From Chloroflexota bacterium (lineage in GTDB: Bacteria; Chloroflexota; Anaerolineae; JAAYEA01): 64,000 nt of DNA. The translations under genes and the position numbers were made by a program. Position 1 is the first letter of the stretch. Each line of letters starts with the position of its first letter. Below are positions 5,678-24,690 of this stretch, piece by piece. Under the pieces are notes generated by a model. It saw nothing but the letters and a program-made list of their open reading frames with translations, was not told where the DNA came from and did not search any database. The stretch lies in the NCBI GenBank assembly GCA_019873665.1, contig JAIOAV010000005.1, positions 1 to 64,000 on the forward strand. The letters are read 5' to 3'.

Positions 5678-5703
5678 GTGAAAAGACGCTCAGGGTATCA
5701 GCT

Positions 5704-5872
5704 GGTAGTATATCCTTTTCGGTAGAAATTGCGAAGGGCAGTGCAAGCCCGAATCGACCTCTCAGCAGACGCTTTACGTGGCCCCAAAGCATCGAATCGG
5801 AGCCAGAAAAAGGCGTTTGGAGCGATTCTGGAGCCGTTTTGGGCGATGATCGACGTCGAGTCTGGGATTTCC
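5704..5872 (+). repeat. Copy A of a ~170-bp conserved intergenic element (three copies in window)
   Basis: ~85% nucleotide identity to 27497-27670 (+) and ~80% to the reverse complement of 14372-14534. Shared core ...gcaagcc(c/a)gaatcg(a/c)cctct(c/g)agcagac(g/a)ctt(t/c)acgtggccc(c/a)aaagcatcgaatcggagccagaaa(a/c)aggcgtttggagcgattctggagccgttt... followed by a GC hairpin. Substitutions do not preserve any reading frame. Confidence 0.8.
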
Positions 5873-5966
5873 CACTGACATCTACCGCTCTGCGCTTGGA
5901 CTTGCCTTGTATGTCAAGCTATGCTATAATGTGTCAAATGGTGCAATCCGATTCAGGGCATGTACT

Positions 5967-6755: not shown

Positions 6756-6780
6756 TGGTAACGCTTTCGGGCTTCCCGCG

Positions 6781-7257
6781 ATGATCTTGCCTGGTCATCT
6801 GGCGATGGCGATTTTCACCCACAAAGTGACTGGATCTGATTTGCGCACCCTGTTGGCAGCCACGCTGGCGCCTGATGTGGTGGACAAGAGCCTGGCACAG
6901 GTGGTTCATGTCGCGCCGAGCGGCCGGTACGCAATGCATACCGCGCTGGGCTGGCTGATCTCGTCGCTCATCGTGCTCTGGGTGGCGGGAAGGCAGCGCG
7001 CCAGCGCCTGGGCGTTGGGATATCTGGCACATCTACTGGGGGATGGTATGCAGGTCCCCTTTTGGTTGCCATTTCGCCGTTACGATTTCGGCGAGGTGAT
7101 GGAGCTGGATGATTTCCTGTGCGGCGTCCTATCGTCGGCAGAAGGGCGCAAAGGTCTATTGGGAGAGATGTTGCTTCTGGTGTTGGCACTGCTCATGCCT
7201 GCGATGGCGAGAGCGGAATCCGAGCTGTGCCGTAACGAGGCGAACCGGTCTCTGTAA
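6781..7257 (+). CDS. Small membrane protein, possibly a YdjM/DUF457-like metal-dependent hydrolase
   Basis: 158 aa, hydrophobic with His/Asp-containing motifs (APDVVDK, HLLGDG); the family assignment is tentative. Confidence 0.35.
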   Translation: MILPGHLAMAIFTHKVTGSDLRTLLAATLAPDVVDKSLAQVVHVAPSGRYAMHTALGWLISSLIVLWVAGRQRASAWALGYLAHLLGDGMQVPFWLPFRRYDFGEVMELDDFLCGVLSSAEGRKGLLGEMLLLVLALLMPAMARAESELCRNEANRSL

Positions 7258-7310
7258 TCGAAAGCCTCCTCTGGACATAGCCGCAGGAGGCTTTGATCCT
7301 CGCACCCTGC

Positions 7311-8375
7311 CTATAGGATGCCTACTTTGCTGTGATCCCCCAGCACAAGTTTGATCGCCTTGGGCTTGATTGGCGAACGCTTGACCTCCACTGATCGGCC
7401 GATCAAGCTGTTCTCAATCCGCTGCGGGATGTCGATGATCTGGCAGTTCTCCAGGATGATGCTGTGCTCGACCTCGCTCGCCTCGATGGTAGTATGGTGA
7501 TAGATCGAGGTAAAGGGACCGATGTACGAGTTGACGATGCGGCTTTCGCGCCCGATTGCAGCGGGGCCGCGGATGACGCTATTGATGATCTCTGCACCCT
7601 CCTCGATCCATACCTTGCCGTTCACCTCGGAGGCGCTATCCACAAAACCGGCTATCTGAGGGGTCAACTCCTCTAGCAACAGACGATTCGCCTCCAGAAG
7701 ATCCTCCATCTTGCCGGTATCTATCCACCAACCCTCGTGGACGTACGGATAGACCTTGTAGCCCTTTTCCACAAGATACTGGATGGCGTCGGTGATCTCC
7801 AGCTCGTTCCGCCACGAGGGCTTGATGGCGTTGACAGCCTCAAAGATATGGTGATCGAACATATAGATGCCGACCAGCGCATAGTTGCTCTTGGGGACAC
7901 GCGGCTTTTCCTCCAGCCCCACGATGCGGCCGTCGCGAATCTCGGCGACGCCGAACGCGCGCGGATCCTCCACGTGCTTGAGCACGATCTGCGCATTCCA
8001 GGTGTTCTGCGAGAATTGTTTGACCAGTCTCTCGATGCCTCCCTGGATGACATTGTCGCCCAAGAACATGACGAAGGGCTCCTCTCGCAGGTAGTCCTGC
8101 GCGACCTTGACAGCGTGTGCCAGGCCAAGGGGAGCTTCCTGACGGACGTAGGTGATCTTGACTCCCCAGCGCGATCCATCACCCACAGCCGCCTGGATTT
8201 CGGGCGCTGTATCCCCGACTATGATGCCAACATCAGAGATGCCGGCATCACGCACTGCCTCGATCACGCGAAAGAGGACCGGTTTGTTCGCCACCGGCAC
8301 CAGCTGCTTGACGCTGGTATAAGTGATCGGGCGCAGCCGAGTGCCCTTCCCGCCGCTGAGAATCAATGCTTTCAT
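7311..8375 (-). CDS. Sugar-phosphate nucleotidyltransferase (long-form glucose-1-phosphate thymidylyltransferase-like, with C-terminal left-handed beta-helix)
   Basis: N-terminal MKALILSGGKGTRLRPITYTSVKQLVPVANKP matches the G-x-G-T-R-L NTP-transferase signature; ~355 aa indicates the long form with a C-terminal LbH domain. Confidence 0.8.
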   Translation of the reverse strand: MKALILSGGKGTRLRPITYTSVKQLVPVANKPVLFRVIEAVRDAGISDVGIIVGDTAPEIQAAVGDGSRWGVKITYVRQEAPLGLAHAVKVAQDYLREEPFVMFLGDNVIQGGIERLVKQFSQNTWNAQIVLKHVEDPRAFGVAEIRDGRIVGLEEKPRVPKSNYALVGIYMFDHHIFEAVNAIKPSWRNELEITDAIQYLVEKGYKVYPYVHEGWWIDTGKMEDLLEANRLLLEELTPQIAGFVDSASEVNGKVWIEEGAEIINSVIRGPAAIGRESRIVNSYIGPFTSIYHHTTIEASEVEHSIILENCQIIDIPQRIENSLIGRSVEVKRSPIKPKAIKLVLGDHSKVGIL

Positions 8376-8380
8376 CGGAT

Positions 8381-9064
8381 CTACCCCTCTTCGCTCTCCC
8401 CGTAATAGTAACCCATGCGACGATTCAATTCCGCGTTGTTGAGCACTGCGCCGATGATCGGCGCGCTCACCTTGTCCAGTTGCGCCTTGGCGTTTCGCAG
8501 ATCGTCTCGCTTGGTGTGACCCGCACTCGCGACGAGCAGCACACCATCCACACGCGAGGCGAGGATAGAGGCGTCGGTGACAGCCAAAACCGGCGGCGCG
8601 TCAAAAAGGAGGAGATCCGCCCTAGCGAGCAGCGACTCGATGACACGCGCCATACGCTGCGAGCCCAACAGGTCGGGCGGGCGTGGCGGCAGTGGCCCAC
8701 TGGCCAACAGCCACAGCCCCTTGACGCCTGTCTCTTGCAGGGGCGGGTTGGCTAGCGCCTCATCCTCTACCATCATCGTTACCAAGCCAATTTCGCGGCT
8801 TAGGCCAAAGAGCTTGTGCAGCACAGGACGGCGCAGGTCGCAATCCACCATGATCACCCTCTTTTCCGCCTGCGCCATGGTCACAGCGAGATTGGCCAGC
8901 GTCGTGGATTTGCCCTCTTCCGGGCTGGCCGACGTAACAAGAATAGTACGTAAGGGCCGATCCACGCTGGTGAATTGCAGGTTGGTGCGCAGCGTACGAA
9001 ATGCCTCACTGGCCAAGGAGCGGGGATCGGCGATCGTGATCAGCTCACCCTGTTTCTCAGTCAT
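8381..9064 (-). CDS. BY-kinase / CpsD-CapB-type tyrosine autokinase (exopolysaccharide chain-length regulation)
   Basis: Walker A (SASPEEGKSTTLANLA), Walker A'/B-like (VIMVDCDLRRP, LLLFDAPPVL) and C-terminal tyrosine cluster (GYYYGESEEG); start placed at MTEKQGEL rather than the upstream in-frame extension. Confidence 0.8.
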   Translation of the reverse strand: MTEKQGELITIADPRSLASEAFRTLRTNLQFTSVDRPLRTILVTSASPEEGKSTTLANLAVTMAQAEKRVIMVDCDLRRPVLHKLFGLSREIGLVTMMVEDEALANPPLQETGVKGLWLLASGPLPPRPPDLLGSQRMARVIESLLARADLLLFDAPPVLAVTDASILASRVDGVLLVASAGHTKRDDLRNAKAQLDKVSAPIIGAVLNNAELNRRMGYYYGESEEG

Positions 9065-9101
9065 CGTTTCTCCGTTTCCTCCAAATGCGATGCAGCTTGG
9101 G

Positions 9102-9797
9102 TCAGGCGCGTTTTGCCAGACGCCCGCTGCGCGGCGCAGACTCGGCCACGACGGGGATGGCGCCCAACACCGGAACACCGAGATAACGCTCAACATCCTC
9201 CTCCGAACGCACGATGTCCGCCTCCAACCATTCGAGGGCAAAGATGATGATCATCCCCAACAACGCGCCCAAAACGCCACCCGCCAGCACGTTGAACTTG
9301 GTCTTGGGCTTGAAGAGCGAGCCAGGGCGGGCGTAATCGCGCACACTGATCAGCACACGGTCGCGCTGATCGATTACCTGCATCTGCTCTGTGATGTCAA
9401 TGACAAATACATCAGCAGTTTTGTCCGCGATCATCTTGGCCAAGAGGGGGTCATAGTCGTCCACGCTGATCTGGATCAAAAGATCCGACTCGACCGGGTC
9501 CACTGAGATCTTGCTGCGCATCATGTCGGGGGGCATGTCCAGTTGTAGCTCATTGTCCACCCGTTGCAGGATCTTGTCCGAAGTGATCTGCCCGGCATAG
9601 TTGCGCAATTGGTTCTTGATCATTTGCTGCAATCCCCAGTCGGGCCGCGCCGGGATGGCATTCAGGTAGAGCGTAGATCGGTACACGGGACGCTGTAGCT
9701 TGCTAAAAACATACGCGCTGGCAGCCGTGATCACCGCCAAGAGGATGATGATCCAGCCTCTTCTGAGCAGTATTCTGACGTACTCATGGATTTCCAC
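9102..9797 (-). CDS. Wzz/CpsC-like polysaccharide co-polymerase (chain-length determinant) protein
   Basis: N-terminal TM helix after MEIHEYVRILLRRGWIIILLAVI, periplasmic domain, second TM near the C-terminus (VLAGGVLGALLGMIIIFALEWL); adjacent to the BY-kinase as in CpsC/CpsD pairs. Confidence 0.75.
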   Translation of the reverse strand: MEIHEYVRILLRRGWIIILLAVITAASAYVFSKLQRPVYRSTLYLNAIPARPDWGLQQMIKNQLRNYAGQITSDKILQRVDNELQLDMPPDMMRSKISVDPVESDLLIQISVDDYDPLLAKMIADKTADVFVIDITEQMQVIDQRDRVLISVRDYARPGSLFKPKTKFNVLAGGVLGALLGMIIIFALEWLEADIVRSEEDVERYLGVPVLGAIPVVAESAPRSGRLAKRA

Positions 9798-9855
9798 TAT
9801 TCCCTCCTGCGGTACCTGTCATGGTGTATCATGACAGGCTAGACTAGAGATTCTA

Positions 9856-10602
9856 TCACCTGTTATCGCTTTCGCCAAGTAGCTTCAGGAGCATACGCCA
9901 GGAACGAAGTCGCCATCTCCTGGAACGAGGTATCTCGGCGAGAGTTTGCAGTCCCAATGCCTCCAGGTCGCTGCAGCCGTGTACACTGTCGTCAAGATAG
10001 TCCAACAGAAACGCCAGCGCCACACCCGCGACCAGCGCCAGGAAGAGCCGAATCGGCAAGTCCAGCCGTTCGCGCAGGCTGGGGCCCACCATGCCCACCA
10101 CCGGCGGATCAATCAGCGCGACATGCGCGTTCTCCGCGCCCAACTGCGCCAGGAATGTGGCGCTTTCCTCTTGCAGCGTCTGCACAGCGGCGTTGGCGAT
10201 CAGCCGCAACTCTTCCTCCTGTCCCCAGGTGATAGACAGGCTGAGGATGCGATGTAACTTGCCTGCCTGCGTGCTCCCCTGAATGGCGCCGGCGGGAACC
10301 TGTATGCCGTGCATTGCCAGTCGCTGCGAGACGGCGCTGGCAAAGGCGCTGCTGCGCACCACTTCTGCCAGATCATCCACCAGGTACTCGGAGGCCAGCC
10401 ATGTGTAATAGCGATCATAGGTGTAATATGCGCCGGTGCTCGGCTCTGGCACGACGCCAACAGCAAAGCGCATGCCCGCCTGATATACCGCTGGCCTGTC
10501 AGCAAGCAGGCCAGGAAGACTGGCGATGACCACTACGAGTAACAAAAGGGCGATCACCCACCTATGTCGCCATAGGATACGACCGTACGCTTTCAGTTCC
10601 AA
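9856..10602 (-). CDS. Second Wzz-like chain-length determinant protein
   Basis: Same architecture (MELKAYGRILWRHRWVIALLLLVVVIASL ... C-terminal TM LFLALVAGVALAFLL); tandem paralog. Confidence 0.65.
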   Translation of the reverse strand: MELKAYGRILWRHRWVIALLLLVVVIASLPGLLADRPAVYQAGMRFAVGVVPEPSTGAYYTYDRYYTWLASEYLVDDLAEVVRSSAFASAVSQRLAMHGIQVPAGAIQGSTQAGKLHRILSLSITWGQEEELRLIANAAVQTLQEESATFLAQLGAENAHVALIDPPVVGMVGPSLRERLDLPIRLFLALVAGVALAFLLDYLDDSVHGCSDLEALGLQTLAEIPRSRRWRLRSWRMLLKLLGESDNR

Positions 10603-11747
10603 GAGATGCCTCCTTTATGCCTGCTGGCCGCCGCCGTTACATAGTCGGCAAGCTGACTCTTGAAGAGCGCGGTGTCAAAGCGGGCAGCATGACGCTGAAT
10701 GGTGGTGCTATCCCAATGCATCTGCTCCGATCGCCGGATAGCATCAATCAGCGATGCGGCACTCTTTTCCCGGAAAAACAGGCCGGTTACGCCTTCGATC
10801 ACCGTGTCCAACGCGCCGCCTCCCGCATAGGCGATGACGGGGCTGCCCGCAGCCTGCGCTTCGACCGGCGTGATGCCGAAATCCTCCTCCCCGGGAAAGA
10901 CAAAAGCGCGACAGTGCGCGAGCTCTTCCCGCAACTCGGCATCGCTCAGCCGCCCGCGAAAGACGATGTTCGGCTTGGCCATCGCCTGCAGCGCGGCGCG
11001 GTCGCGTCCATCGCCGACGATGTGCAGCGGCAGGCCAAGCTCATTGAACGCTTGCACGGCCAGATCCACCCGTTTGTATGGGATCAAGCGCCCTGCGCTC
11101 AGGTAGTAGTCTCCGCGCTGTGGCGCGGCATAGAAGCGTCGTACGTCCACCGGCGGATAGATGATCTCAGCAGTGCGGCCATAGCACCTGCCGATGCGCT
11201 CGCGCACTGCCTGTGAGATAGCGATAAAGTCGTCAATGCGATCCGCTGCCCTGCGATCCCATCGGCGGAGGCGCGTGATCAGCGGCGGCAACAGCAGTCG
11301 CGCCACTTTCCCCAGCGCCTCGCGCTTCACGTACGTCTCATAATCCCAAAGGAAACGGGCCGGGGTCAGGCAATAGCAGATGTGTCGGGTTTCCGGTGGC
11401 GTCTTGATGCCATGAGCAAAAGCGCTGGTAACGCTCAAGAGCACGTCATAGCCACGCACATCCAGGCGTTCAAAGGCGATCGGATACAGGGGCAGAAACG
11501 GCTGATGATGTGGCTTGACCAACGGCCAGCGATCGAGAAAGGTAGTGCGAATATCCCAGGAGCGGTACGCAGCGGGCAGCGCTTCTGGCCAGTAAATCGA
11601 GGTATAGATTGGCGCCTCCGGGTACATCTCGTGCACCACTTCCAGGACGCGCTCTGCGCCGCCATATTGGTTCAGATACGAACAGGCAATCGCTACCCGT
11701 AACGCCACAGTCTCTTGCTCACCTTGCTCGTCGCTATTTCCCCACAC
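10593..11747 (-). CDS. Glycosyltransferase family 4 (GT-B, group 1)
   Basis: 384 aa with the C-terminal GT4 E-x7-E-type region (FVFPGEEDFGITPVEAQAAGSPVIA). Confidence 0.8.
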   Translation of the reverse strand: MWGNSDEQGEQETVALRVAIACSYLNQYGGAERVLEVVHEMYPEAPIYTSIYWPEALPAAYRSWDIRTTFLDRWPLVKPHHQPFLPLYPIAFERLDVRGYDVLLSVTSAFAHGIKTPPETRHICYCLTPARFLWDYETYVKREALGKVARLLLPPLITRLRRWDRRAADRIDDFIAISQAVRERIGRCYGRTAEIIYPPVDVRRFYAAPQRGDYYLSAGRLIPYKRVDLAVQAFNELGLPLHIVGDGRDRAALQAMAKPNIVFRGRLSDAELREELAHCRAFVFPGEEDFGITPVEAQAAGSPVIAYAGGGALDTVIEGVTGLFFREKSAASLIDAIRRSEQMHWDSTTIQRHAARFDTALFKSQLADYVTAAASRHKGGISWN

Positions 11748-13125
11748 AGAAACGCCGAAAGATCGTGTCCAGTAGATCCTCTGTCGCCGATTCGCCGGTG
11801 ATCTCCCCCAGCGCCGTCACAGCAGCAGTTACGTCAATCGAGACAAAATCCTCGGCCATGCCACGCATGTGTGACTCCTGGGCCGCCCGGACATGCTCCA
11901 GTGCCCGATGCAGGATGGCCTGGTGGCGCGGATTACTCACCAGCGGCGCATCGGATGTGCGCACCTGCCCGGCAAAGATCGCCTCCTCCATGGCCTGCTC
12001 GAGCGTGTCTATCCCCTCGCCGGTCAGTGCGGAGACCGTCACATGCATAGCTTTTGGCAAAAGGGCATCAGTCACGGCGACTGCGGGCAGGTCTGCCTTG
12101 TTGAGCACGAGGATCACTGTCTTGCCGTGCAACAACGCGGCGATCGCCTCGTCGGCGGCGGTCAACGCCTCGCTGCGGTCAACGACGAACAGGACGAGAT
12201 CTGCCTGCTGCAACGCCTGGCGGCTGCGCTCGATGCCCAGTTGCGTGACCAGATCCTCTGTGGCGGCGATGCCGGCGGTATCCACTAGGCAGAGGGGAAT
12301 ACCGCGCAAGTTCAGCCTCTCTTCGAGAGTGTCGCGCGTTGTGCCCGGAATCGGCGCGACGATGGCGCGGCTCGTGCGCAACAGCGCGTTCAGCAGGCTT
12401 GACTTGCCCACATTCGGCCGGCCCACAATCGCCACGCGCACCCCCTGCCGGTAGATGATGCCCTGGCTCGATTGCACGAGGAGCTGCTCCAGTGCCGCCT
12501 CAGCCCTGGCCAGCGGTGGCGCGATGTCCTGATACGGGATGTCGTCCTCCGTGAAATCTATGCTGGCTTCCAGGAAGGCAAGCACCTCCACCAGTTCCTG
12601 TCGCACTACGCGCACTCTATCCGACAGCCGCCCTTCCAGTTGACCTAACGCCATCCGCAGGCTCGCATCGGTCTGCGCACAGATGATGTCCAGCACCGCC
12701 TCCGCCTGCGCCAGGTCGAGACGCCCATTAAGAAAAGCGCGCAGGGTGAACTCGCCCGGCTCGGCCAGCCGCGCGCCCTGGCGCAACGCCAGCAGCAGGA
12801 TGCGCCGCAGCGGGACGATGCCGCCGTGACAGTTGATCTCGACGACATCCTCCCGTGTATACGAGTGCGGCGCCCGCATATAGGACGCCAGAACCTCGTC
12901 CAGAGTTTCCCCAGTCGCCGGATCAACCACGCGCCCATAACGGAGTCGGTATGGCTCAATCGCCGGCACAGCGTTCCCTTTCTTGCCACGCCGTAGGACA
13001 CGGCGCAAGATGGCAAGCGCATCCGGCCCGCTAAGGCGAACGATGCCGATTCCTCCCTCGCCGATGGGCGTGGAGATCGCGACGATGGTGTCATTCAGCA
13101 CGGGCATGCGATTCCGCCAATTCAC
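11734..13125 (-). CDS. mnmE: tRNA modification GTPase MnmE (TrmE)
   Basis: N-terminal folate-binding domain (DTIVAISTPIGEGGIGIVRLSG), G-domain (GRPNVGKSSLLNAL, DTAG) and C-terminal CxGK motif (RFCVGK). Confidence 0.9.
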   Translation of the reverse strand: MNWRNRMPVLNDTIVAISTPIGEGGIGIVRLSGPDALAILRRVLRRGKKGNAVPAIEPYRLRYGRVVDPATGETLDEVLASYMRAPHSYTREDVVEINCHGGIVPLRRILLLALRQGARLAEPGEFTLRAFLNGRLDLAQAEAVLDIICAQTDASLRMALGQLEGRLSDRVRVVRQELVEVLAFLEASIDFTEDDIPYQDIAPPLARAEAALEQLLVQSSQGIIYRQGVRVAIVGRPNVGKSSLLNALLRTSRAIVAPIPGTTRDTLEERLNLRGIPLCLVDTAGIAATEDLVTQLGIERSRQALQQADLVLFVVDRSEALTAADEAIAALLHGKTVILVLNKADLPAVAVTDALLPKAMHVTVSALTGEGIDTLEQAMEEAIFAGQVRTSDAPLVSNPRHQAILHRALEHVRAAQESHMRGMAEDFVSIDVTAAVTALGEITGESATEDLLDTIFRRFCVGK

Positions 13126-14311
13126 CGATCAACATACAAGGCCCATGTACCGTCTGCGTGAGAAAGAGAATGCACGTCTGACTTCCTGACAGCTTGAGCC
13201 CCTTCCGAAAGGTCTCTGGCTCCACCGGAAAGCCCCTCTTTTTGACCACCAGCTCTCCCACGTCTAACGCGTGCAGGCGTTCCTTGAGCAGGCGTAGGCT
13301 GAAGCGGTGCGCCTCAAGAATACGATAGCCCTTGGCAAAGGGCGTCTGCACTAGGTGGTCGCCAACCAGATAGGCGATATCCGGATGGATCTTGGCCAGA
13401 CCTAACTGCCGCGCCAGCGGCTGAACCAGATGGGCGCGGATCACCGCGGCATCCGGCTCATAAAGATAGCGCTGTGGCTCGACGACGGGCACGGAGGCGA
13501 CATCTTCATCGTCAATGAGCGTTGCCTCTTGCGGCAGGAGCGTCGCACGACGCGCGCACGTCCGAAAACGCCCCAGCCAGAGGATCGCCTCTTTGCAGGT
13601 TCCCTTCTCCGAAATGAACTCGACCTCGCAATCAAGCCCCAGCTGGTCTAGCTCATCGTAATCCACGCCGGGTGATATCTTGACGGCGATATCCGGCGTC
13701 TCGCGCCTCAGCTCGCGCAGCACGGTGAGTGGCGGATCGTAGCGAAAGATGGAGAAGGCACGCCGCTCTTCCGCCCGCCGCGAGGGATCCAGATACAGGG
13801 CCGGGAGCGCGGAGAGGCGCAGCGTGCGCCAGTCCGCGCAGACCGGCCACATGGCCTCCGAGCGACCACCGGCGGCGACATTGGCTACCGCTATCCGGAG
13901 ACGCAGCTCATCCCGCTCGATGGCCATCACCTGCGTTACCTGGCTCAGCGCCATTGTGTCGCCGCCGATCCCACATCCCAGCTCTCCCAGCCTGGAGACA
14001 GACGCCAGCCGCTGGGCGCGGTAGCGCGCGACGGCGTCGCCGCTGGCCTGCTCCAGCGCCTCACGCGTCAGGTAGAGCCGATCGGCGCAGGCGAACTTGA
14101 CGGCCGCCCGCTGGCGGAGCAGCGCCGTCTCCAGTGCCGCCGCGGCGTGATCCCTGCCATACGCGGCGCGCAGCCGTTCCAGCCAGCGCAGGCGATCGCC
14201 CTCTCGGATCTGCTCGCCGGCGAGTTGCTGCAGCGCGGCAGCGCCCTGGGGCGACTGGAGCCAATCAAGGTCAGCCAGAGTCATCTGATATGCCATATCC
14301 ACACCGCCCAT
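13091..14311 (-). CDS. Class I SAM-dependent methyltransferase with a C-terminal THUMP-like/uncharacterised domain
   Basis: SAM-binding motif I (LGCGIGGD); ~400-aa two-domain protein; the start may be the second Met (MAYQM). Confidence 0.55.
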   Translation of the reverse strand: MGGVDMAYQMTLADLDWLQSPQGAAALQQLAGEQIREGDRLRWLERLRAAYGRDHAAAALETALLRQRAAVKFACADRLYLTREALEQASGDAVARYRAQRLASVSRLGELGCGIGGDTMALSQVTQVMAIERDELRLRIAVANVAAGGRSEAMWPVCADWRTLRLSALPALYLDPSRRAEERRAFSIFRYDPPLTVLRELRRETPDIAVKISPGVDYDELDQLGLDCEVEFISEKGTCKEAILWLGRFRTCARRATLLPQEATLIDDEDVASVPVVEPQRYLYEPDAAVIRAHLVQPLARQLGLAKIHPDIAYLVGDHLVQTPFAKGYRILEAHRFSLRLLKERLHALDVGELVVKKRGFPVEPETFRKGLKLSGSQTCILFLTQTVHGPCMLIGELAESHARAE

Positions 14312-14371
14312 ATTTTACGGTTTTGCAGGCAAAATCCCAAACCAGCCATCCGACGGGTAGCATGTAAATAA

Positions 14372-14534
14372 GTCCCGGACTTACCTCGGTCGTCGCCAAA
14401 AACAGCTCCTGAATCGCTCCCAACGCCTGTTTCTGGCTCCGATTCGATGCTTTGGTGCCATGTGAAGCGTTTGCTCAGAGGGCGATTCCGGCTTGCACTG
14501 CCCTTTGCGCAATCTCCACCGAAAAGTATATCGC
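14372..14534 (-). repeat. Copy C (inverted orientation) of the ~170-bp conserved intergenic element
   Basis: Reverse complement aligns with copies A and B across the whole core (…cagtgcaagccggaatcgccctctgagcaaacgcttcacatggcaccaaagcatcgaatcggagccagaaacaggcgttgggagcgattcaggagctgtttttggcgacgaccgaggtaagtccgggact…). It lies immediately 5' of the minus-strand methyltransferase gene. Confidence 0.8.
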
Positions 14535-14610
14535 AGTTTGCCTAATCGGCAGGATTATGCTATAATTACTATTTGTGGCATGTGCATTACCGGAAAGGCG
14601 GTGAAGTGCG

Positions 14611-14970
14611 ATGGTGGATCTTCTCTCCTCTGTGGAGCAGCAGTACAAATCTGAGAAGGAAATACCTGATCTGCGACCTGGCGATACAGTCCGCGTCCAT
14701 AATCGCATTGTGGAAGGCGAGCGTGAGCGCGTTCAAGTCTTTCAAGGAACGTTGATGCGGCATCGGCATGGGGGCCTGAACGAGACGATTACGGTACGGC
14801 GTATCGCCTCCAATGGTGTGGGTGTGGAGCGTACCTTTCTCCTGAATTCACCTTCAGTGGAAAAAGTCGAGATCATGCGCCACGCCAAGACGCGACAGGC
14901 CCAGCTCTATTTTCTACGGGATCGGCGTGGCAAGTCGGCGCGTATCAAAGAGAACCGGTCGCGCGAGTAG
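14611..14970 (+). CDS. rplS: 50S ribosomal protein L19
   Basis: 119-aa protein with conserved L19 core (…RPGDTVRVHNRIVEGERERVQVFQGTLM…VRRIASNGVGVERTF); gctataat -10 box ~50 nt upstream. Confidence 0.9.
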   Translation: MVDLLSSVEQQYKSEKEIPDLRPGDTVRVHNRIVEGERERVQVFQGTLMRHRHGGLNETITVRRIASNGVGVERTFLLNSPSVEKVEIMRHAKTRQAQLYFLRDRRGKSARIKENRSRE

Positions 14971-15001
14971 GACGCGCGCGGCATCGTCCCGGAGACATGA
15001 G

Positions 15002-15026
15002 GCGCAGGCGCAGACCTGCGCTTTTT
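15002..15026 (+). terminator. Probable rho-independent terminator/attenuator after rplS
   Basis: GC stem gcgcagg / cctgcgc followed by ttttt, between rplS and rnhB. Confidence 0.45.
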
Positions 15027-15042
15027 CGTCTGGAAACGGCGG

Positions 15043-15729
15043 ATGCAGATTCCTACCCTGGCTGTCGAGCGATCGCTATTCGCAGATGGGTATCACTGGA
15101 TTGCGGGCATTGACGAGGTAGGCCGTGGCGCGTGGGCTGGCCCAGTGGTTGCGGCCGCAGTTATCCTGCCAGTGCAAGAGCAGACACTCATCGCCGATCT
15201 GGCAGGAGTGCGCGACTCCAAGTTGCTGACCCCGGCTCAGAGACACTCTCTCGCGCAGCGTATTCGCGCACAAGCCCTCACCGTGGGGACTGGCATGGTC
15301 TCACATAGCGAGATCGATGCACACGGCATTGTCGCGGCGACACGCCGGGCGATGCTGCTCGCGCTGGCCGCCCTGCCTTTCCAGCCCGACTATCTGGTGA
15401 TAGACGCGCTGACTCTGCCGGGCTGTCCGATCGCACAGATGGCGATCATCCACGGGGACGCGCGCTGCCTCAGCGTCGCTGCGGCCTCCATTATCGCCAA
15501 GGTGACGCGCGACAACTGGATGGTCGGGCAGGATAGTGCCTATCCAGGCTATGGCTTTGCGCAGCACAAGGGCTATGGCACGCGCGCACATCAGAGCGCG
15601 TTAGCCCGGTTGGGGCCGACCACTATCCACCGCCGCTCTTTTGCTCCTCTCCGCCACTACCTGTCGGCGCAAGGTGAGCACTGTGACACCTCATCAGATG
15701 CCAGCCTCATCAGTGGCGGACGCGAGTAG
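15043..15729 (+). CDS. rnhB: Ribonuclease HII
   Basis: N-terminal catalytic motif IAGIDEVGRGAWAGPVVAAAVIL (D-E-D-D family); classical rplS-rnhB linkage. Confidence 0.9.
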   Translation: MQIPTLAVERSLFADGYHWIAGIDEVGRGAWAGPVVAAAVILPVQEQTLIADLAGVRDSKLLTPAQRHSLAQRIRAQALTVGTGMVSHSEIDAHGIVAATRRAMLLALAALPFQPDYLVIDALTLPGCPIAQMAIIHGDARCLSVAAASIIAKVTRDNWMVGQDSAYPGYGFAQHKGYGTRAHQSALARLGPTTIHRRSFAPLRHYLSAQGEHCDTSSDASLISGGRE

Positions 15730-15911
15730 AATCCCTGACTTTGGGCCACTGCCGCGCATGGCAGCAGCCCAGAGAATTGGCGTTGCGCCGCGATGATGGA
15801 CTTGTGGCGAATTTCGTGGTATTATATGCACCATCTACAGACCAAGCATTGATAATGCTCTGTTGTGAGCATCCCGCCGTTGATCGCCCTTGACCGATCA
15901 GGAGCAGCGTT

Positions 15912-17480
15912 ATGCTAAAGCCCTTGCGTGTCCTTTTGGGCAGCCTCCTTGTCATAACCGCATTTCTGCTGACACCCTGGCAGATCAGTTACGTTGTCCT
16001 CAGTGCATTTCTACTCTGGCTGGTCTCAAGCTTTGCGCCTCGCCGCTACAAGCGTCATTTCTTCCTCGCCTGGTGCGTCGTGTTCATCACGCTCTTCGTC
16101 AGCACCGTGCTACAATCCATTCTCATTCGGCACCGTGGCTTCCAGAGCCTGCTGCAACGCTTCCCTATCCTCGATCTGCTGGCGGGCGGCCCTTATAAGC
16201 TCGGCTTTTGGGCGGCCCTCGCCGGCCTGGTGATCGCCATCGTCGCCGTCTGGGTTGCGCTGCAGGCGCTGGCATTTGTCAGCGCGGAATGGGTTCTGAA
16301 TCTGAGCAGCGGATTGCAGATTGACGCGAAACAAGCGCGCAAGTACGTGTGGGACCTCATCCTACAGCAACACCTCCCCTCGGTGATTGTGGATAGCGGG
16401 CAGGCCATAACCCAGTCGCCGGCAGGTATCCTCAATCGGTTGGGAGGACCTGGCCTGCTCATCATACGGCCAGGGAATGCTGTCATCGTTGAGTCCGCAG
16501 ACGGCACAGTGGAAATTCACGGGCCGGGCACGGCTCCCCTCAAGCGTCTGGCAAAGATCAAGGAAGTGGTTGATCTTCGCCCACAGGAAGAGGCTATCAC
16601 GGTGACCGAGGTGCTCACTAAGGAGCGGATCCCGCTCAAGTTCCAGCTCAATGCCATCTTTCAGATCGAGCCGAAAGCAGACACCGATTCCCGGCCCGCG
16701 GCTCTGACAGAGCGCAAGCACGTGGAGGGCACGATCAGCGGCCCATATGCTGTTTACAAGGAGACGGTGTTCAAGGCGGGTTACCAAGCGGCCCATGCGG
16801 GATGGAAGGCGGAGACGATCCAGGCCATTTCCGCCGCGCTAAGAGATATCGTCTTTGGGCACAGCATCGAAGAGATATACCACACACCTGTGGCCACGCT
16901 GGCTGAGAGCCGGTATGTTGGCACGGGCACCCCAGAAAAGAGCCAGATTATCTCATCGTTGGAACAAGCGCTCCAGCAACAGCTAGCGGCCGTCACCCCG
17001 GCCTGGGGCGTGCGTATCGCGAGCATTGACATCGCCACCATCGAGGCCCCAGCCGAGATCTACCAGACGATCTTGACCTGGTGGCAGAAAAAGTGGGAAG
17101 TCGAGATCGCCAAGCAGGATGCGACAAAGGAAGCCACGCTGATGATGGAACGTGCCGCCGCGCGCCGGGATGCCTTCATGTACGAGACGGAGGGGGAGGC
17201 CCTGGCCCGTGCCCAGTGGCTGCGCGAGATTCTGCCGGTGCTCCTCAAGGACAACCAGACTCTCGATAACCGCAGCGTGGTCGAACTGCTGCGCGAGCTG
17301 ATCTCTCCCGGCAAAGGCCGCACCATCGAGCAGCCAAAGCAAGCGCCGCAACTGACACAGCCCGCTCCTACTGTCCCCATGTCCGCCGACGGCGCACAGC
17401 AGGCAGCGTCACCAGCCCCACCACCAGAGACATCTGCAGAGCAGCCAAAGGCTGAACCAGGGAGCAAGAAGGAGGAGTGA
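15912..17480 (+). CDS. SPFH/Band-7 domain membrane protein with long C-terminal extension
   Basis: N-terminal TM helices, SPFH-like core (…LLIIRPGNAVIVESADGTVEIHGPG…ITVTEVLTKERIPLKFQLNAIFQIEP…), coiled-coil and Pro/Ala-rich acidic tail. Confidence 0.65.
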   Translation: MLKPLRVLLGSLLVITAFLLTPWQISYVVLSAFLLWLVSSFAPRRYKRHFFLAWCVVFITLFVSTVLQSILIRHRGFQSLLQRFPILDLLAGGPYKLGFWAALAGLVIAIVAVWVALQALAFVSAEWVLNLSSGLQIDAKQARKYVWDLILQQHLPSVIVDSGQAITQSPAGILNRLGGPGLLIIRPGNAVIVESADGTVEIHGPGTAPLKRLAKIKEVVDLRPQEEAITVTEVLTKERIPLKFQLNAIFQIEPKADTDSRPAALTERKHVEGTISGPYAVYKETVFKAGYQAAHAGWKAETIQAISAALRDIVFGHSIEEIYHTPVATLAESRYVGTGTPEKSQIISSLEQALQQQLAAVTPAWGVRIASIDIATIEAPAEIYQTILTWWQKKWEVEIAKQDATKEATLMMERAAARRDAFMYETEGEALARAQWLREILPVLLKDNQTLDNRSVVELLRELISPGKGRTIEQPKQAPQLTQPAPTVPMSADGAQQAASPAPPPETSAEQPKAEPGSKKEE

Positions 17481-18244
17481 TGTCCACAGCAAGCCCTTCC
17501 CCTCGAAAAGCGGAAACGGCAGCGAAGGAAGCGCCAGTGCCCAGCTATTTCCAGACGATCCTGGGCCAGATCAGCATTCTCACACTCCTTCTGCCGCTAG
17601 CGCCCATCCTGCCTGACATGGGACGCAAGACAACCGTTATGGCCGAGGTCATCTGCGCGCTGGTGTTCATTTTCCTCTACAAGCAACGCCGCTCGCTATA
17701 CGAGGGGGAGCTGCGCAAGAGCGTCCGTGGCGCTGCGGGGATGAGCGTGAGGACGATCGCGATCCTAGCACTTGCTGCGGCCATGGTGGTGGGCTTCTTT
17801 CTGGCTTCAGACGGCGCAGTCTACCTGAAGCAAATCCTGCCCACCGTTCTCGTGAGCAAGTTCATCGTCCCACCCTTGCAGATGTTCACCTTTGCCGGGG
17901 TGACCTTCGCCTTTGCCACGATGGCCGCTCTCGATTATATGGCCAAGCTAGAGGAGGCAGGACAATATCCCCGGCCAGATTACCTGCGAGAAGACGCGGA
18001 TCTTCCCACACTAGCCGCCAAGGTCCTGCGCGCCAACCTGAAGATCCCGGATGGAATCGAGTGGAAAATCGTGGAGCGCGAAAAGACACGTAGCGGCGGT
18101 GCCAAGCTGGTCATCGCGTGGACAGAAGAGGTCGTGCGGACAACCTCAAAGGGCGAGATGGTCAAACTTGTACAGGAGAAGCGATACAGGGTCGAACTCG
18201 GCGTGAAGGGGCAGATCATCTCCTTTGCGGAGATCACGACATGA
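17477..18244 (+). CDS. Hypothetical integral membrane protein (translationally coupled to the SPFH gene)
   Basis: GTGATG stop/start overlap with the upstream gene; 4 predicted TM helices; no family assignment. Confidence 0.5.
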   Translation: MMSTASPSPRKAETAAKEAPVPSYFQTILGQISILTLLLPLAPILPDMGRKTTVMAEVICALVFIFLYKQRRSLYEGELRKSVRGAAGMSVRTIAILALAAAMVVGFFLASDGAVYLKQILPTVLVSKFIVPPLQMFTFAGVTFAFATMAALDYMAKLEEAGQYPRPDYLREDADLPTLAAKVLRANLKIPDGIEWKIVEREKTRSGGAKLVIAWTEEVVRTTSKGEMVKLVQEKRYRVELGVKGQIISFAEITT

Positions 18245-18284
18245 TACGAGAGCAGGTCAAAGCAAGCTATAGGAAGGACGGGCC

Positions 18285-19211
18285 ATGAGCGTACCTCGTA
18301 TAGTCGTTATCGGCGCTGCCACCCTCGACATCAAGGGAAAGGCCAAGAAGGCATTGCTGCCGCTAACCTCGAACCCCGGGGACATTCATTTTGGCCCAGG
18401 TGGCGAGGCGCGGAACATCGCTGAGAACCTGGCCCGCCTTGGCCTAGAGACGATCTTGCTCTCCGCGGTGGGACAGGACAGCATTGGGGCCACTATCATC
18501 GCCGACACGGCAGCGGCAGGGGTTGATATCAGCCGCGTGATCCAGAGCGAAACGCACCGCTCATCTACTTATCTGGCGGTGCTGGACGATTCCGGAGCGC
18601 TGGCGATCTCCATCGAGGATATGGCGGCGCTCGAACTGATACGGCCACAGTTCATTTTCCAGCACCGAAGCTGCTTTGCGGGTGCAGCTATGATCGTCAT
18701 AGACGCGAACCTGTCGGAACGCACGATACAGTCAATCCTGCGCATTGCAGAACGATATCGCGTGCCGGTGGCGGCAAACACAGTCTCGGTGGGGTTGGCA
18801 CCGCGTCTGCGCTCTTTCCTCCCGCGGCTGAGCATCCTAACCGCCAACGCCACCGAGGCCTCGGCGCTGTTGAATGAGCGGATCAGCAACACCAGAGAGG
18901 CGCAAGCCATGGCACAGCGTCTTGTCGCGATGGGTGTTGGCACCGTCATCATCACACTCGCTGACAGGGGACTATGCTATGCCACCTCGCGTGAGAGCGG
19001 CTACATGCCGGCGATCCGGTGCGATGTGGTGGATTATACCGGTGCCGGCGCTGCTCTGATGGCGGCGGTGATCTATGGCATCGTCAACGCATTTCCCATC
19101 AATGAGGCGATGCGGCTTGGCGTCTCGGCGGCGACGCTCACGCTCAAATGTCCGGAAACGGTGAGCAAAGAGATGAGCCTCGACAGTCTGTATAACGCAT
19201 TGGTGATATAA
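18285..19211 (+). CDS. psuK: PfkB-family carbohydrate kinase, probable pseudouridine kinase
   Basis: PfkB signatures (IGAATLDIKG…, C-terminal DTTGAGD-like VVDYTGAGAALMAAV); immediately upstream of psuG with a 3-nt gap. Confidence 0.7.
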   Translation: MSVPRIVVIGAATLDIKGKAKKALLPLTSNPGDIHFGPGGEARNIAENLARLGLETILLSAVGQDSIGATIIADTAAAGVDISRVIQSETHRSSTYLAVLDDSGALAISIEDMAALELIRPQFIFQHRSCFAGAAMIVIDANLSERTIQSILRIAERYRVPVAANTVSVGLAPRLRSFLPRLSILTANATEASALLNERISNTREAQAMAQRLVAMGVGTVIITLADRGLCYATSRESGYMPAIRCDVVDYTGAGAALMAAVIYGIVNAFPINEAMRLGVSAATLTLKCPETVSKEMSLDSLYNALVI

Positions 19212-19213
19212 GG

Positions 19214-20137
19214 ATGACAACAGTGCGAATGATGCGTAGCAGCGAGGTGCAAGCCGCCATGGCTGCAGGGGCGGCGATCGTGGCGCTCGAGTCGAATGTG
19301 ATCTCGAGCGGGCTGCCCTATCCCGAGAACATCGCCACAGCATACAAAGTGGAGCAGGCAATTCGCGACGCTGGCGCCGTGCCTGCGACTATTGCGGTGC
19401 TCCACGGCCAGATCAAGGTGGGGCTGACGGGAGACGAGATCGAATACCTCGGCACAGCGCGTGGCACGCGCAAGATGAGCCGGCGCGATCTACCCCTGGC
19501 GCTGGCACAGGCATGGAGTGGTGGCACCACGGTGGCAGCCACCATGCTCCTCGCTCACCGGGCAGGGATCCGTGTTTTCGCCACCGGCGGCATCGGCGGC
19601 GTGCATCGTGGGCAGCCTTTGGATGTCTCCGCCGATCTGCCCGAGCTGGCCCAGACGCCGGTCCTGGTGGTTTGCTCCGGCGCCAAGGCGATCTTGGACC
19701 TGCCGCTGACGCTGGAGTGGCTGGAAACGCACGGCGTGCCAGTGATCGGATTTGGCACATCCGAGTTCCCCTCTTTCTACAGCCGCCATAGCGGGCTGGG
19801 GGTAGACGTGCGTGTGGATCAGCCTGAAGAGGCAGCAAACATCTTTCGGGCGCAGCGGGCGCTGGGCATGAGTACCGCCCTGCTGGTGACGGTGCCAGTG
19901 CCGGCCGATGTGGAGCTGGATCACGTGCAAATGGAGCAGGCGATCAACGCCGCACTGGGGGAGGCCGCAGCCGCAGGAGTCAGCGGCAAAGCACTGACAC
20001 CCTTCCTCCTCTCTCGTGTGGCTGGCCTCACTGCGGGCGCTAGCCTGCGAGCAAATGTGGCGCTATTGGAGAATAACGCACGCGTGGCCGCGACCATCGC
20101 CGCTGCGCTGCAGTCGGGAGCGGCGAATGAAATCTGA
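19214..20137 (+). CDS. psuG: Pseudouridine-5'-phosphate glycosidase
   Basis: 307 aa, YeiN/PsuG-like throughout (…VALESNVISSGLPYPENI…ATGGIGGVHRG…VLVVCSGAKAILD…). Confidence 0.85.
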   Translation: MTTVRMMRSSEVQAAMAAGAAIVALESNVISSGLPYPENIATAYKVEQAIRDAGAVPATIAVLHGQIKVGLTGDEIEYLGTARGTRKMSRRDLPLALAQAWSGGTTVAATMLLAHRAGIRVFATGGIGGVHRGQPLDVSADLPELAQTPVLVVCSGAKAILDLPLTLEWLETHGVPVIGFGTSEFPSFYSRHSGLGVDVRVDQPEEAANIFRAQRALGMSTALLVTVPVPADVELDHVQMEQAINAALGEAAAAGVSGKALTPFLLSRVAGLTAGASLRANVALLENNARVAATIAAALQSGAANEI

Positions 20138-20792
20138 CGCCTGGGCGCTGATTCTTTCGTACATCTATGTTTTTGCCGTCATCCTGTGCGGCGAAGGGCT
20201 GCGCCGTTGGCGGCGCTATTCCGTTGATTTCACGCGCAAATTCATCCACGTCGGCGTCGGCCTATGGAGCATCGGCACCGTCGCGCTATTCCAGAATCGT
20301 TATCTGGCGATGATCCCGCCCCTTTCCTTCGTTGTCATCAACTATATCTCTTACCGGCGCGAGACCTTCAAGGCAATGGAAACCGGAGAGCCTGGCAACC
20401 TGGGCACCGTCTATTTCCCTGTCTCCTTTGCCGTGTTGATCCTCTGGTTCTGGGGGCAGCCGGCGCTGCTCGTGGCGAGCCTCATGCCGATGACGCTTGG
20501 CGACGCCGCAGCTGCCCTGGTCGGCGAACGCTTTGGCCATCACCGCTTCCGTGTATTCGGCAGTCAAAAAAGCTGGGAGGGGAGCATTGCCATGTTCCTG
20601 GTAAGCTCTCTGGCCATATGGATCACGCTGAGGATCATGTCCGCCGCAGGGTGGGCGATCAACCTGTGGCTCGCTGCCATCGTCGCCCTTGCGGCTACTG
20701 CTGTGGAAGCCTTCACTCCATGGCGCATGGACAACCTGACTGTGCCATTCGTATCCGCGCTCGTCCTGGCGTTGCAGTCCGCCGTGCGCTAG
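20127..20792 (+). CDS. Polyprenol/phytol/dolichol-kinase-family (CTP-dependent) membrane protein
   Basis: Multi-TM 221-aa protein with RKxxH-type motif (TRKFIHVGVG) and an LGD…ERFG segment typical of the dolichol kinase/VTE5/CdsA superfamily; start overlaps the psuG stop (ATGAAATCTGA). Confidence 0.5.
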   Translation: MKSDAWALILSYIYVFAVILCGEGLRRWRRYSVDFTRKFIHVGVGLWSIGTVALFQNRYLAMIPPLSFVVINYISYRRETFKAMETGEPGNLGTVYFPVSFAVLILWFWGQPALLVASLMPMTLGDAAAALVGERFGHHRFRVFGSQKSWEGSIAMFLVSSLAIWITLRIMSAAGWAINLWLAAIVALAATAVEAFTPWRMDNLTVPFVSALVLALQSAVR

Positions 20793-20813
20793 AGAACTCT
20801 GGGGAACGCCGGA

Positions 20814-20842
20814 TTTGCTGCCAAAGCTGAATAGTGCTATAA
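20814..20842 (+). promoter_or_regulatory. Sigma70-like promoter for rpsO (TTGCTG-17-TATAAT)
   Basis: ttgctg ccaaagctgaatagtgc tataat ~80 nt upstream of the rpsO ATG. Confidence 0.5.
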
Positions 20843-20924
20843 TTGCCAATCGGAGAAACTGCGCATTCTGCTATTCGCCAACAAGCTCCAGATGACGACT
20901 GATTCGAGCAGAAAGGAAGTACAT

Positions 20925-21194
20925 ATGCCTTTGTCCACCGAGCAAAAGATGACCATCATTCAGGAGTATCATCTGCACCAATCAGATACCGGCTCTCCGG
21001 AAGTGCAGATTGCTCTGCTCACGCGGCGGATTAGCGACCTGACGGAACACCTGAAGATCCACAAGCACGATGAACACTCGCGGCGCGGGCTGATCAAGTT
21101 GGTGGGGCAGCGGCGTCGGCACTTGAACTACCTCAGCCAGAAAGACGTGAACCGATATCGTGAGATCGTGGCACGGCTTGGCCTGCGCAAGTAG
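20925..21194 (+). CDS. rpsO: 30S ribosomal protein S15
   Basis: MPLSTEQK… with conserved [13 protein letters not shown]…HDEHSRRGL…; RBS gaaaggaag; start chosen at the internal Met of the longer ORF. Confidence 0.9.
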
Positions 21195-21224
21195 GCGATC
21201 GTTCACCTGAGACGTCTGAACAGC

Positions 21225-21262
21225 GAGTAGATGGTGAGATCACTCTCCATCTACTCGTTTGG
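21225..21262 (+). terminator. rpsO terminator/read-through hairpin in the rpsO-pnp intergenic leader
   Basis: 10-bp stem gagtagatgg…ccatctactc followed by gtttgg; a second long hairpin (gagtgagc…gctcactc, 21328-21365) lies in the pnp leader. Confidence 0.45.
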
Positions 21263-21408
21263 CTGTAGGTAGGAGGGATGGGTTTGAGGTTGAGCCACGG
21301 GTACAGGAATTGGAGAGTGCGCCTAACGAGTGAGCGTCGTCAGCCACGCGCCGTGAGGCTCACTCTCCAGTCCCTGGCCGATGGTCCAACCTCGCATACA
21401 GAGGAAGG

Positions 21409-23604: not shown

Positions 23605-23625
23605 ACCCATCTGGAGAAGGGAAGG

Positions 23626-24195: not shown

Positions 24196-24306
24196 GCGCA
24201 GTGCAGCTCTTCGTTGGCGATTTGATCTTTTGGCCTGAACAGCGTATAATCGCAAACTGGCTTGTGGGAAGACAAGAACAGATCATCGTAGTGGAGGTGA
24301 TCATCA

Positions 24307-24600: not shown

Positions 24601-24641
24601 GCGCGGCGGTGCACGATGCGCGCCGAATGTCTCATAGCGAA

Positions 24642-24678
24642 AAACAGGAGCATGAAGATAAGACTCATGCTCCTGTTT
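24642..24678. terminator. Bidirectional rho-independent terminator between convergent genes
   Basis: Perfect inverted repeat aaacaggagcatga…tcatgctcctgttt flanked by A/T runs on both strands. Confidence 0.7.
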
Positions 24679-24690
24679 CTATCTCAGGAC

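Follow-up and report, generated by a model that had tools for sequence, protein, structure and literature searches.

A probable decayed MITE family in three copies at divergent promoters of an uncultured Anaerolineae-like Chloroflexota bacterium

Bacterial MITEs (short for miniature inverted-repeat transposable elements), among which MITEAba12 of Acinetobacter, RUP of S. pneumoniae and BrickBuilt of P. gingivalis, are non-coding sequences of 100-400 bp, carry inverted repeats, are bordered by target duplications, reside at intergenic sites, often near promoters, vary in presence between close relatives, and may hold promoter-like hexamers inside the repeat (PMC10969869). An element alike in these features is described here. 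It is found in three copies, denoted A, B and C, in the first 64,000 nucleotides (hereafter the window) of contig JAIOAV010000005.1 (GenBank assembly GCA_019873665.1), a metagenome-assembled genome (MAG) of an uncultured Anaerolineae-like Chloroflexota bacterium. Unlike known MITEs, it lacks sequence similarity in the Rfam, phage, plasmid, genome and metagenome collections scanned, and its copies are seemingly old, being 79-85% identical to each other rather than near-identical. Almost no reports of MITEs in Chloroflexota were found in the literature.

The Correia elements (CREE) of Neisseria are similarly close, as they have an inverted-repeat form of ~100-155 bp, sit just upstream of genes, can carry sigma-70-like promoters and are linked to inversions (PMC10969869). 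The element of the window differs from them for the ~8-bp duplication and for the number of copies, three in the window. Correia elements duplicate the dinucleotide TA, number in the hundreds, and give rise to transcripts that RNase III processes. Pairs of bacterial MITEs that bracket large DNA segments have been documented (PMC10969869, PMC6382973), and the three copies described here are similarly placed at the ends of rearranged segments.

Most probably (about 0.85) the element is a decayed MITE, that is a non-autonomous transposon derivative, the old copies of which lie between divergent promoters, and it is not a leader RNA. It is called a MITE, by criteria taken from PMC10969869, because it is small, lacks an open reading frame (ORF), has inverted repeats and ~8-bp duplications, occurs in several copies, and is missing from the corresponding sites of sister species. 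At 176-195 nt and non-coding, the copies fall within the size range of MITEs (roughly 50-500 bp), and three dispersed copies reside in 64 kb. The element looks like a new MITE family, previously undescribed, of an uncultured Chloroflexota lineage.

Three copies of one element

The three copies are the following.

5703..5886, plus strand: copy A of the putative MITE, 184 nt; 5' inverted repeat intact, degenerate 3' end ...ACATCTACC
27496..27690, plus strand: copy B, 195 nt; the most intact, both terminal inverted repeats kept
14356..14531, minus strand: copy C, 176 nt; 3' end ...ACATGCTACC

Identity between copies amounts to 79-85% from end to end, and rises to 87-88% in the core. A repeat search of the window detected the direct pair 5698-5862 and 27491-27655 (88% identity), and the inverted arms 14383-14508 versus 5731-5856 (87%) and 14383-14504 versus 27528-27649 (88%). 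A nhmmer profile built from the copies matches the 64-kb window at exactly three places, with E from 4e-58 to 3e-65, and detected nothing weaker there. Both searches bear out an earlier note on this DNA, made from the sequence alone, according to which a third, inverted copy of a ~170-bp element lies between a methyltransferase gene and rplS. The note allowed that the similarity might be confined to a short low-complexity stretch; in a MAFFT alignment the resemblance covers the entire ~170 nt, and is not of low complexity. The copy had been placed at 14372-14534, and its limits are refined to 14356-14531 by comparison with congeners.

The limits of B were taken from sites found empty in congeners, as was the 5' limit of A, the 3' limit of which was placed by likeness to the 3' end of C. 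The 3' limit of C was set where homology to congeners resumes (window 14355/14343). The homology on the rplS side begins at window 14532, which sets the 5' limit of C; this copy has lost TGGTAGT, the 7 initial nt, and with them most of the inverted repeat.

The G+C content of the copies is 53-55%, versus 62% for the window. The longest exact words common to copies measure 26-32 nt. A conserved ORF within the element was considered and rejected, since no frame with a start codon stays open in all three copies. Copy B alone features a perfect 12-bp palindrome, TTTGACGCGACG-ATCGA-CGTCGCGTCAAA, at window 27632-27660; A and C have a different, imperfect version, 5 nt shorter. The palindrome may be an ancestral hairpin retained by B, or a quasi-palindrome "corrected" by template switching.

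Empty sites, target duplications and terminal repeats

Loci of relatives were reached by protein searches with the methyltransferase (MTase), with sigA and PNPase, and with the rplS cluster. The MTase search yielded the exact 401-aa protein on a 1.4-kb Logan contig of run SRR16606022, and two distant relatives, L002 and L015, at 55-59% amino-acid identity. Congeners L016 (ENA ERZ4756918), L017 and L019 (JGI 3300027914) and L018 (ENA ERZ4756917) were found by the sigA and PNPase searches, and congener L020 (GCA_900174595.1) through the rplS cluster. Congener loci are 84-88% identical to the window at the DNA level (84.7% and 86.8% for L016 and L017, respectively), and are assigned to the same genus. 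No element was detected by nhmmer in the loci of congeners and relatives, ~70 kb in total.

Two sites are empty in these genomes. Site a, located between the phosphoribosyltransferase gene (PRT) and sigA, is empty in L016 and L017, which have the order TsaD-NHL-GuaA-PRT(-) followed by sigA(+); blastn joins window 5684/5702 directly to 27691. Site c, located between the amidase and MTase genes, is empty in L018 and L019 as well as in L015 and L002, which are more distant. In these four, amidase/DHO_dh(-) and MTase(+) are divergent neighbours 105-185 nt apart. By blastn, window 27490/27498 is continuous with 14343/14355, the two overlapping by 10 nt in L019. At both sites, the element is therefore polymorphic for presence between close relatives.

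The target of each site is single-copy in the empty sites and is duplicated in the window.

5695..5702, plus strand: left half of the site a (PRT/sigA) duplication, GTATCAGC, abutting the 5' end of A
27691..27698, plus strand: right half of the site a duplication, GCATCAGC, abutting the 3' end of B
27488..27495, plus strand: left half of the site c (amidase/MTase) duplication, ACGTCGGA; the next TGG is ambiguous, either flank or element
14346..14355, minus strand: right half of the site c duplication, CGTCGGATGG, abutting the 3' end of C

At site a, GCATCGGC occurs once in L016 and L017, and twice in the window (5695-5702 and 27691-27698); L017 5229-5236 aligns to the former segment as well as to the latter. 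The congeners read ...GGGGCATCGGCACTTTTTTTGACA..., and the window reads ...GGGTATCAGC followed by TGGTAGTATATCC... at the left edge of A, and ...ACCACC followed by GCATCAGCACTTTTTTTGACA... at the right edge of B. The two halves, written as GYATCAGC or GCATCRGC, match at 7 of 8 positions. At site c, ACGCCGGATGG occurs once in L019, and in the window adjoins B on its 5' side and C on its 3' side, L019 16060-16069 aligning to window 27489-27498 as well as to 14355-14346. Here L019 reads ...CCGCACGCCGGATGGATTGGTTTGGGG... once, and the window reads ...CCACACGTCGGATGG followed by TAGTATATCC... at the left edge of B, and ...GCTACC followed by CGTCGGATGGCTGGTTTGGG... at the right edge of C. The halves, CGTCGGAT(GG) (CGYCGGAT), match at 8 of 8 positions, in a register defined to +/-1 nt. 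The hypothesis that CGTCGGATGG is a terminal direct repeat of the element was rejected, since congeners show it to be native target DNA. In both duplications the halves are paired across copies, the left of A with the right of B, and the left of B with the right of C; they plausibly reside on different copies because of later rearrangements.

Terminal inverted repeats are best seen in copy B.

5704-5715 and 27497-27508, plus strand: 5' repeat GGTAGTATATCC of A and of B; in B it begins an imperfect inverted repeat of 32 nt
27679..27690, minus strand: 3' terminal inverted repeat of B, GGTGGTATACCC, matching the 5' repeat at 10 of 12 positions

When the termini of B, GGTAGTATATCCTTTGCGGTGGAAACTGCGCA and GGTGGTATACCCATCTCGACGGAAATCCCGCA, are compared as inverted repeats in a 32-nt alignment anchored at both ends, 22 of 32 positions match, starting from the outermost bases, with a shuffle p of ~0.001; of the 12 outermost positions, 10 match. 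A pattern search with GGTAGTATATCC, allowing up to 2 mismatches, found it at 5704 and 27497 and also, read on the minus strand, at 27679-27690; matches were 6 in all, versus 1.2 expected by chance. The repeat starts with either GGTAGTA or GGTGGTA (GGTRGTA).

Termini of the GGTAG...CTACC type, followed in B by a hairpin-forming segment, together with the hairpin potential and the intergenic location of the element, are reminiscent of GTAG-tagged REPs (repetitive extragenic palindromes) and REPINs, which are moved by RAYTs, IS200/IS605-like Y1 transposases (PMC3733652). That the element belongs to this group, rather than being a MITE mobilised by a DDE transposase, is very improbable. Both reconstructed sites carry a ~8-bp duplication that is single-copy in the empty sites. 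Y1 transposases act on single-stranded DNA and make no such target duplication. Moreover the element, 176-195 nt long, goes far beyond a REP doublet (single REPs measure 20-40 nt), its copy density is low, and neither a Y1 transposase domain nor a RAYT was seen by Pfam among the proteins of the window.

The start of the repeat and the length of the duplication recall some insertion sequences (ISs). The repeat consensus is GGnnnTG in IS1 and GGCACTG... in IS6 elements, both of which generate 8-9-bp duplications, cointegrates and inversions. On the basis of the GGTRGTA start and of the ~8-bp duplication, an IS1- or IS6-like transposase might have been the partner of the MITE, which is proposed as a lead only. 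In the IS1-family element ISAba3 the repeat is GGTGGTGTTTC... and the duplication is 8 bp long (PMC6382973).

The identity between copies, 79-85%, overlaps that of neighbouring intergenic DNA compared between species, 68-91%. Copies diverge as ordinary intergenic DNA does; therefore they are old, do not exhibit signs of special constraint, and are probably decaying now in a roughly neutral manner.

Several observations weigh against a MITE. The inverted repeat is convincing only in B, as the 3' ends of A and C keep little beyond CTACC and the 5' terminus of C is deleted. The two duplications differ by 1 nt in register (8 versus 7-9 bp) and each includes a mismatch. None of the three copies is intact and carries both halves of one duplication, and the third pair to be expected, AAACTGCG at the left of C and GCTCTGCG at the right of A, matches at 5 of 8 positions only. 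Neither a transposase gene nor a full-length parent IS was identified by Pfam in the window. No family members were found outside this genome, either by pattern scans of genome, metagenome and viral contigs or by blastn of plasmids and phages: exact scans of genome and metagenome contigs with three conserved 20-23-mers gave 0 matches, and blastn at a distant setting retrieved nothing from plasmids and phages. Seven matches to a 16-mer in viral contigs were rejected, being seed matches only. Finally, the arrangement rests on a single MAG contig.

Divergent promoters and the regulatory readings

Copy A lies between PRT (5005-5580, minus strand) and the DUF3426-YdjM operon (plus strand), copy C between the operon encoding a THUMP-like SAM methyltransferase and MnmE (minus strand) and rplS (plus strand), and copy B between the Amidase_3 gene (minus strand; true start ~27407) and sigA (plus strand), which encodes the primary sigma factor; genes were identified by Pfam. 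The start of sigA is at 27961, according to a 425-aa public gene call, and the DUF3426/YdjM operon likely begins with the ATG at 5967. All three host regions are divergent, with strong sigma-70-like promoters facing outward on both sides. Promoters come from a promoter scan and, in one case, from reading by eye, and are consensus predictions rather than mapped transcription starts.

14538..14566, plus strand: predicted rplS promoter, TTGCCT-17-(TG)TATAAT (-35 box TTGCCT at 14538-14543, -10 box TATAAT at 14561-14566); native, conserved in element-free congeners
14312..14340, minus strand: predicted MTase promoter, TTGGGA-17-TAAAAT; native, conserved in L018 and L019
27706..27734, plus strand: predicted sigA promoter, a perfect TTGACA-17-TATAAT, 15 nt 3' of B; conserved in L016 and L017
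5902..5930, plus strand: predicted DUF3426/YdjM operon promoter, TTGCCT-17-(TG)TATAAT, 15 nt 3' of A
5678-5650, minus strand: predicted PRT promoter, TTGCTC-17-TATAAT; read by eye
27481-27454, minus strand: predicted amidase promoter, TTGCCT-16-TACAAT; from the promoter scan

Of the two -35 boxes that flank each copy, one is 6-24 nt away and the other 15-30 nt. The rplS promoter (14538-14566, plus strand) and the MTase promoter (14340-14312, minus strand) lie on either side of copy C, the nearness of which to a divergent rplS promoter the earlier note had recognised. The distance, given there as ~20 nt, is corrected: the element stops 6 nt short of the -35 box, where it places an A/T-rich stretch, and ~30 nt short of the -10 box. 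The MTase gene starts most likely at 14296, in agreement with the 401-aa public gene call P0001, and not at ~14311 as had been proposed. Some extra similarity upstream of B and C (ATTGTAGCA...GGCAAA) was discarded, as it corresponds to the -10 and -35 boxes of the amidase and rplS promoters on the opposite strand.

Two further proposals of the note do not hold. The polarity of the copies, identical relative to the gene that each precedes, is uninformative: the likeness is automatic because each copy sits between two outward-facing promoters, and in a divergent region either orientation precedes a co-oriented gene. Nor is the element an integral part of a bidirectional control region, since congeners keep the promoters of rplS, MTase, amidase, PRT and sigA in its absence. 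Since congeners feature the same promoters without the element, this is a lineage-specific insertion.

The same data bear on the hypothesis that the element is a cis-regulatory leader RNA common to the DUF3426-YdjM, sigA and MTase-mnmE operons. The identical orientation of the three copies relative to the downstream gene might suggest it, as might the folding of B, which is better than that of shuffled sequences (z = -3.1), and the ability of the element ends to pair, ATCCT with GGGAT. The orientation carries no weight in divergent regions, as said. The promoter of the downstream gene lies 15-30 nt 3' of each copy, and therefore the element is outside the main transcripts and their 5' untranslated regions (UTRs). 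The same genes and promoters are found without the element in congeners and in more distant relatives, and the three operons are functionally unrelated. RNAalifold, run on the three copies, gave 0 compensatory pairs, ~8 broken pairs and 3 conservative changes; fold z-scores are +0.5 for A, -3.1 for B and -1.7 for C, and each copy adopts a different structure. Rfam, searched over the whole window at gathering thresholds, has no match to the element, and at E <= 10 a lone 15.8-bit match to a Brucella sRNA in the C and B regions, for which the cutoff is 270 bits, was dismissed as due to chance. A leader RNA is on these grounds extremely improbable.

Hardly more credible is a family of small RNA (sRNA) genes, each transcribed from its own promoter, an extended -10 (TGGTAGTAT) at the 5' edge of the element. 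TGnTAGTAT is indeed found at the 5' edge of A and B, and a size of ~180 nt is typical of sRNAs. Yet the -10-like motif TGGTAGTAT belongs to the inverted repeat and is deleted in C, a matching -35 box is absent, and terminator-like sites were found in none of the three regions. Structure is not conserved, congeners lack the element, and duplications and inverted repeats would require an origin by transposition anyway.

Compatible with a MITE, and deserving more credit than either RNA hypothesis while still rather improbable, is exaptation, by which copies of mobile origin would now act on the flanking promoters. They could possibly do so as outward promoters, as A/T tracts resembling UP elements, as spacers or insulators between promoters coupled by supercoiling, or as platforms for protein binding. 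The closeness of the copies to -35 boxes on both sides is in favour, and one insertion adjoins the gene of the primary sigma factor. The promoter scan detected in A an outward promoter, TTCGCA-17-TATACT, on the opposite strand (5735-5707), and sigma-70-like promoters are documented in Correia elements, MITEAba12 and other MITEs (PMC10969869). The outward promoter, however, does not emerge from the scan of B and has been lost from C; the genes on either side all retain promoters of their own, conserved in congeners; the copies diverge about as fast as ordinary intergenic DNA; and short spacers between divergent promoters simply tolerate insertions. The best-supported interpretation is an insertion that is passive and decaying, in a tolerated position, the spacer of 30-50 nt that separates back-to-back -35 boxes; no observation calls for an effect on the neighbouring promoters.

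A false lead is removed in this way, the element being neither a riboswitch-like RNA nor a conserved bidirectional operator. For annotators, repeats found with the same polarity upstream of genes in divergent regions are more likely tolerated insertions than regulators. Where the element settled at rplS and sigA, the -35 box of the promoter is 6-30 nt away.

A leader of ~220 nt follows the sigA promoter (window 27735-27960), and is ~72-80% conserved in L016 and L017. No credible match to it was found in Rfam. Perhaps the gene of the primary sigma factor has here a 5' UTR that is structured or regulatory.

Gene order around the copies

Congeners have two loci. In one PRT is next to sigA. The other reads X, rplS...pnp...DHO_dh-amidase, MTase-MnmE...DUF3426, Y. 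In the window, the order is PRT, A(+), DUF3426...MTase, C(-), rplS...amidase, B(+), sigA. Two segments bounded by copies account for the difference.

5703..27690, no strand: 22-kb block comprising A, DUF3426..MTase, C, rplS..amidase and B; not found between PRT and sigA in two congeners
14532..27495, no strand: 13-kb segment with rplS, rnhB, rpsO, pnp, lepB, DHO_dh, amidase and other genes, bounded by the inverted copies C and B

The 22-kb block is bracketed by the direct copies A and B and by the site a duplication, and it ends 15 nt upstream of the sigA promoter. The 13-kb segment is inverted relative to the MTase block, in comparison with four relatives.

These arrangements may be accounted for as follows. 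A DDE-type transposase encoded elsewhere would have mobilised an element with the ancestral terminus GGGTATACCACC-3', giving rise to a target duplication of ~8 bp. The element would have entered the lineage after the split from the sequenced congeners, and would have settled in short spacers between back-to-back divergent promoters. Its copies would then have acted as end points of the 13-kb inversion (rplS..amidase) and of the 22-kb relocation between PRT and sigA, either through a transposase acting on pairs of copies or through homologous recombination between them.

The pattern of the flanks fits equally well replicative transposition (an intramolecular inversion, and a cointegrate or translocatable unit), homologous recombination between copies inserted independently, and a cut-and-paste composite. 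One contig bears on the choice. In L023, from the same run SRR16606022, a different gene is joined to CSD-LGT, which in L019 is the ancestral neighbour on the left, and no copy of the MITE is present in the 1.9 kb of this contig. The simplest histories of recombination or replicative deletion leave a fourth copy at the old locus, and are therefore disfavoured as modes of excision; the lack of a copy matches a clean excision of a composite.

It is tentatively suggested, as a possibility somewhat less probable than its negation, that a transposase, by acting on a pair of MITE copies, moved the 22-kb block with its essential housekeeping genes in one piece, as a composite transposon or as an IS26-like translocatable unit. 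The suggestion is made because the inverted repeats at the outer ends of the block (5' of A, 3' of B) are the two that are best preserved, because next to these ends lies an 8-bp duplication, the target of which is single-copy in two congeners, and because the L023 junction has no MITE, as cut-and-paste excision predicts. To our knowledge, transposase-driven relocation by MITE pairs has been described essentially only for accessory or resistance cargo, and not for core chromosomal operons.

The nearest parallels are the MITE-flanked class 1 integrons and the 76-kb MITE-297 region of pA297-3 in Acinetobacter, in which direct copies similarly bracket a segment with an outer target duplication (PMC6382973). 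Those composites carry plasmid resistance cargo (PMC6382973), whereas the block includes core chromosomal genes (rplS, rpsO, pnp, lepB, mnmE) and, in addition, a third, inverted copy. The translocatable units of IS26 and the IS6 family and the replicative transposition of IS1 offer a further parallel: an inverted segment has inverted copies at its two ends and, next to opposite element ends (the left of B and the right of C), the new target sequence, and direct copies surround an inserted segment with the target duplicated outside, at the left of A and the right of B. The 8-bp duplication and inverted repeats beginning with GG are also shared, but the element described here lacks a transposase. 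If the proposed history is correct, the locus is an example of how small non-autonomous elements may reshape the order of core genes.

The gene order, though not the element itself, could alternatively stem from mis-assembly of the MAG contig at the repeated copies. The order is seen in one contig, and L001, a contig that Logan assembled independently from the same run, breaks within C, at a 32-mer common to B. The copies are nevertheless only 79-85% identical, and the exact words common to them, 32 nt at most, are too short to confuse assemblers that use larger k values. Undoing the joins would close rplS..amidase and MTase..DUF3426 into a homeless 22-kb circle of essential genes, and L023, obtained from the same run, has the ancestral left neighbour CSD-LGT joined elsewhere, without the 22-kb block. 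Mis-assembly is consequently held to be quite unlikely.

A rearrangement break point recurs in the few bases that precede the rplS -35 box, at window 14532-14545 and at about 1690 in L018, 3100 in L019, 1135 in L020 and 1740 in L023. The left neighbour of rplS varies: it is the MITE with MTase in the window, LytR_cpsA_psr in L018 and L020, and LGT with a 69-aa gene in L019. The LGT side adjoins still another gene in L023, which comes from the run of the window genome itself. Both insertion targets (GCATCAGC and ACGTCGGA) fit the consensus CRTCRG, and the X/Y junction of L023 (~1741-1748) reads GCATCAGG at the break. The likeness could reflect a target-site preference, an excision footprint or a coincidence. 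L023 also has, relative to L019, ~233 extra nt (1392-1624), which encode on the opposite strand a zinc-ribbon-like ORF of 106 aa containing two CxxC pairs; L021 holds a weak relative of it.

Other small differences were noticed among relatives. L020 and L018, which are ~93% identical, differ by a ~65-nt indel in the intergenic region between LytR and rplS (L020 991-1057), which may be another small mobile or repeat sequence, and does not match the MITE profile. In L019 (16060-17452) the MTase-MnmE operon appears degraded; a 180-aa ORF and a 215-aa MnmE fragment are all that is left, and blastn reveals internal deletions relative to window 14291-12408. Because of this degradation, no close MTase homologue from the L019 genome was found in the search. 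The contigs L016 and L017 both stop 70-180 nt past sigA, which may point to another repeat or variable region.

Downstream of sigA, the window encodes on the minus strand (29840-32476) an 878-aa family-X DNA polymerase with a PHP domain (PolX). A single ORF of 1214 aa, at 48654-52298 on the minus strand, combines a serine hydroxymethyltransferase (SHMT) domain with a glycine-cleavage T-protein domain (GCV_T). It adjoins two genes for GcvP subunits (42179-45144), and is an unusual fusion of two one-carbon enzymes.

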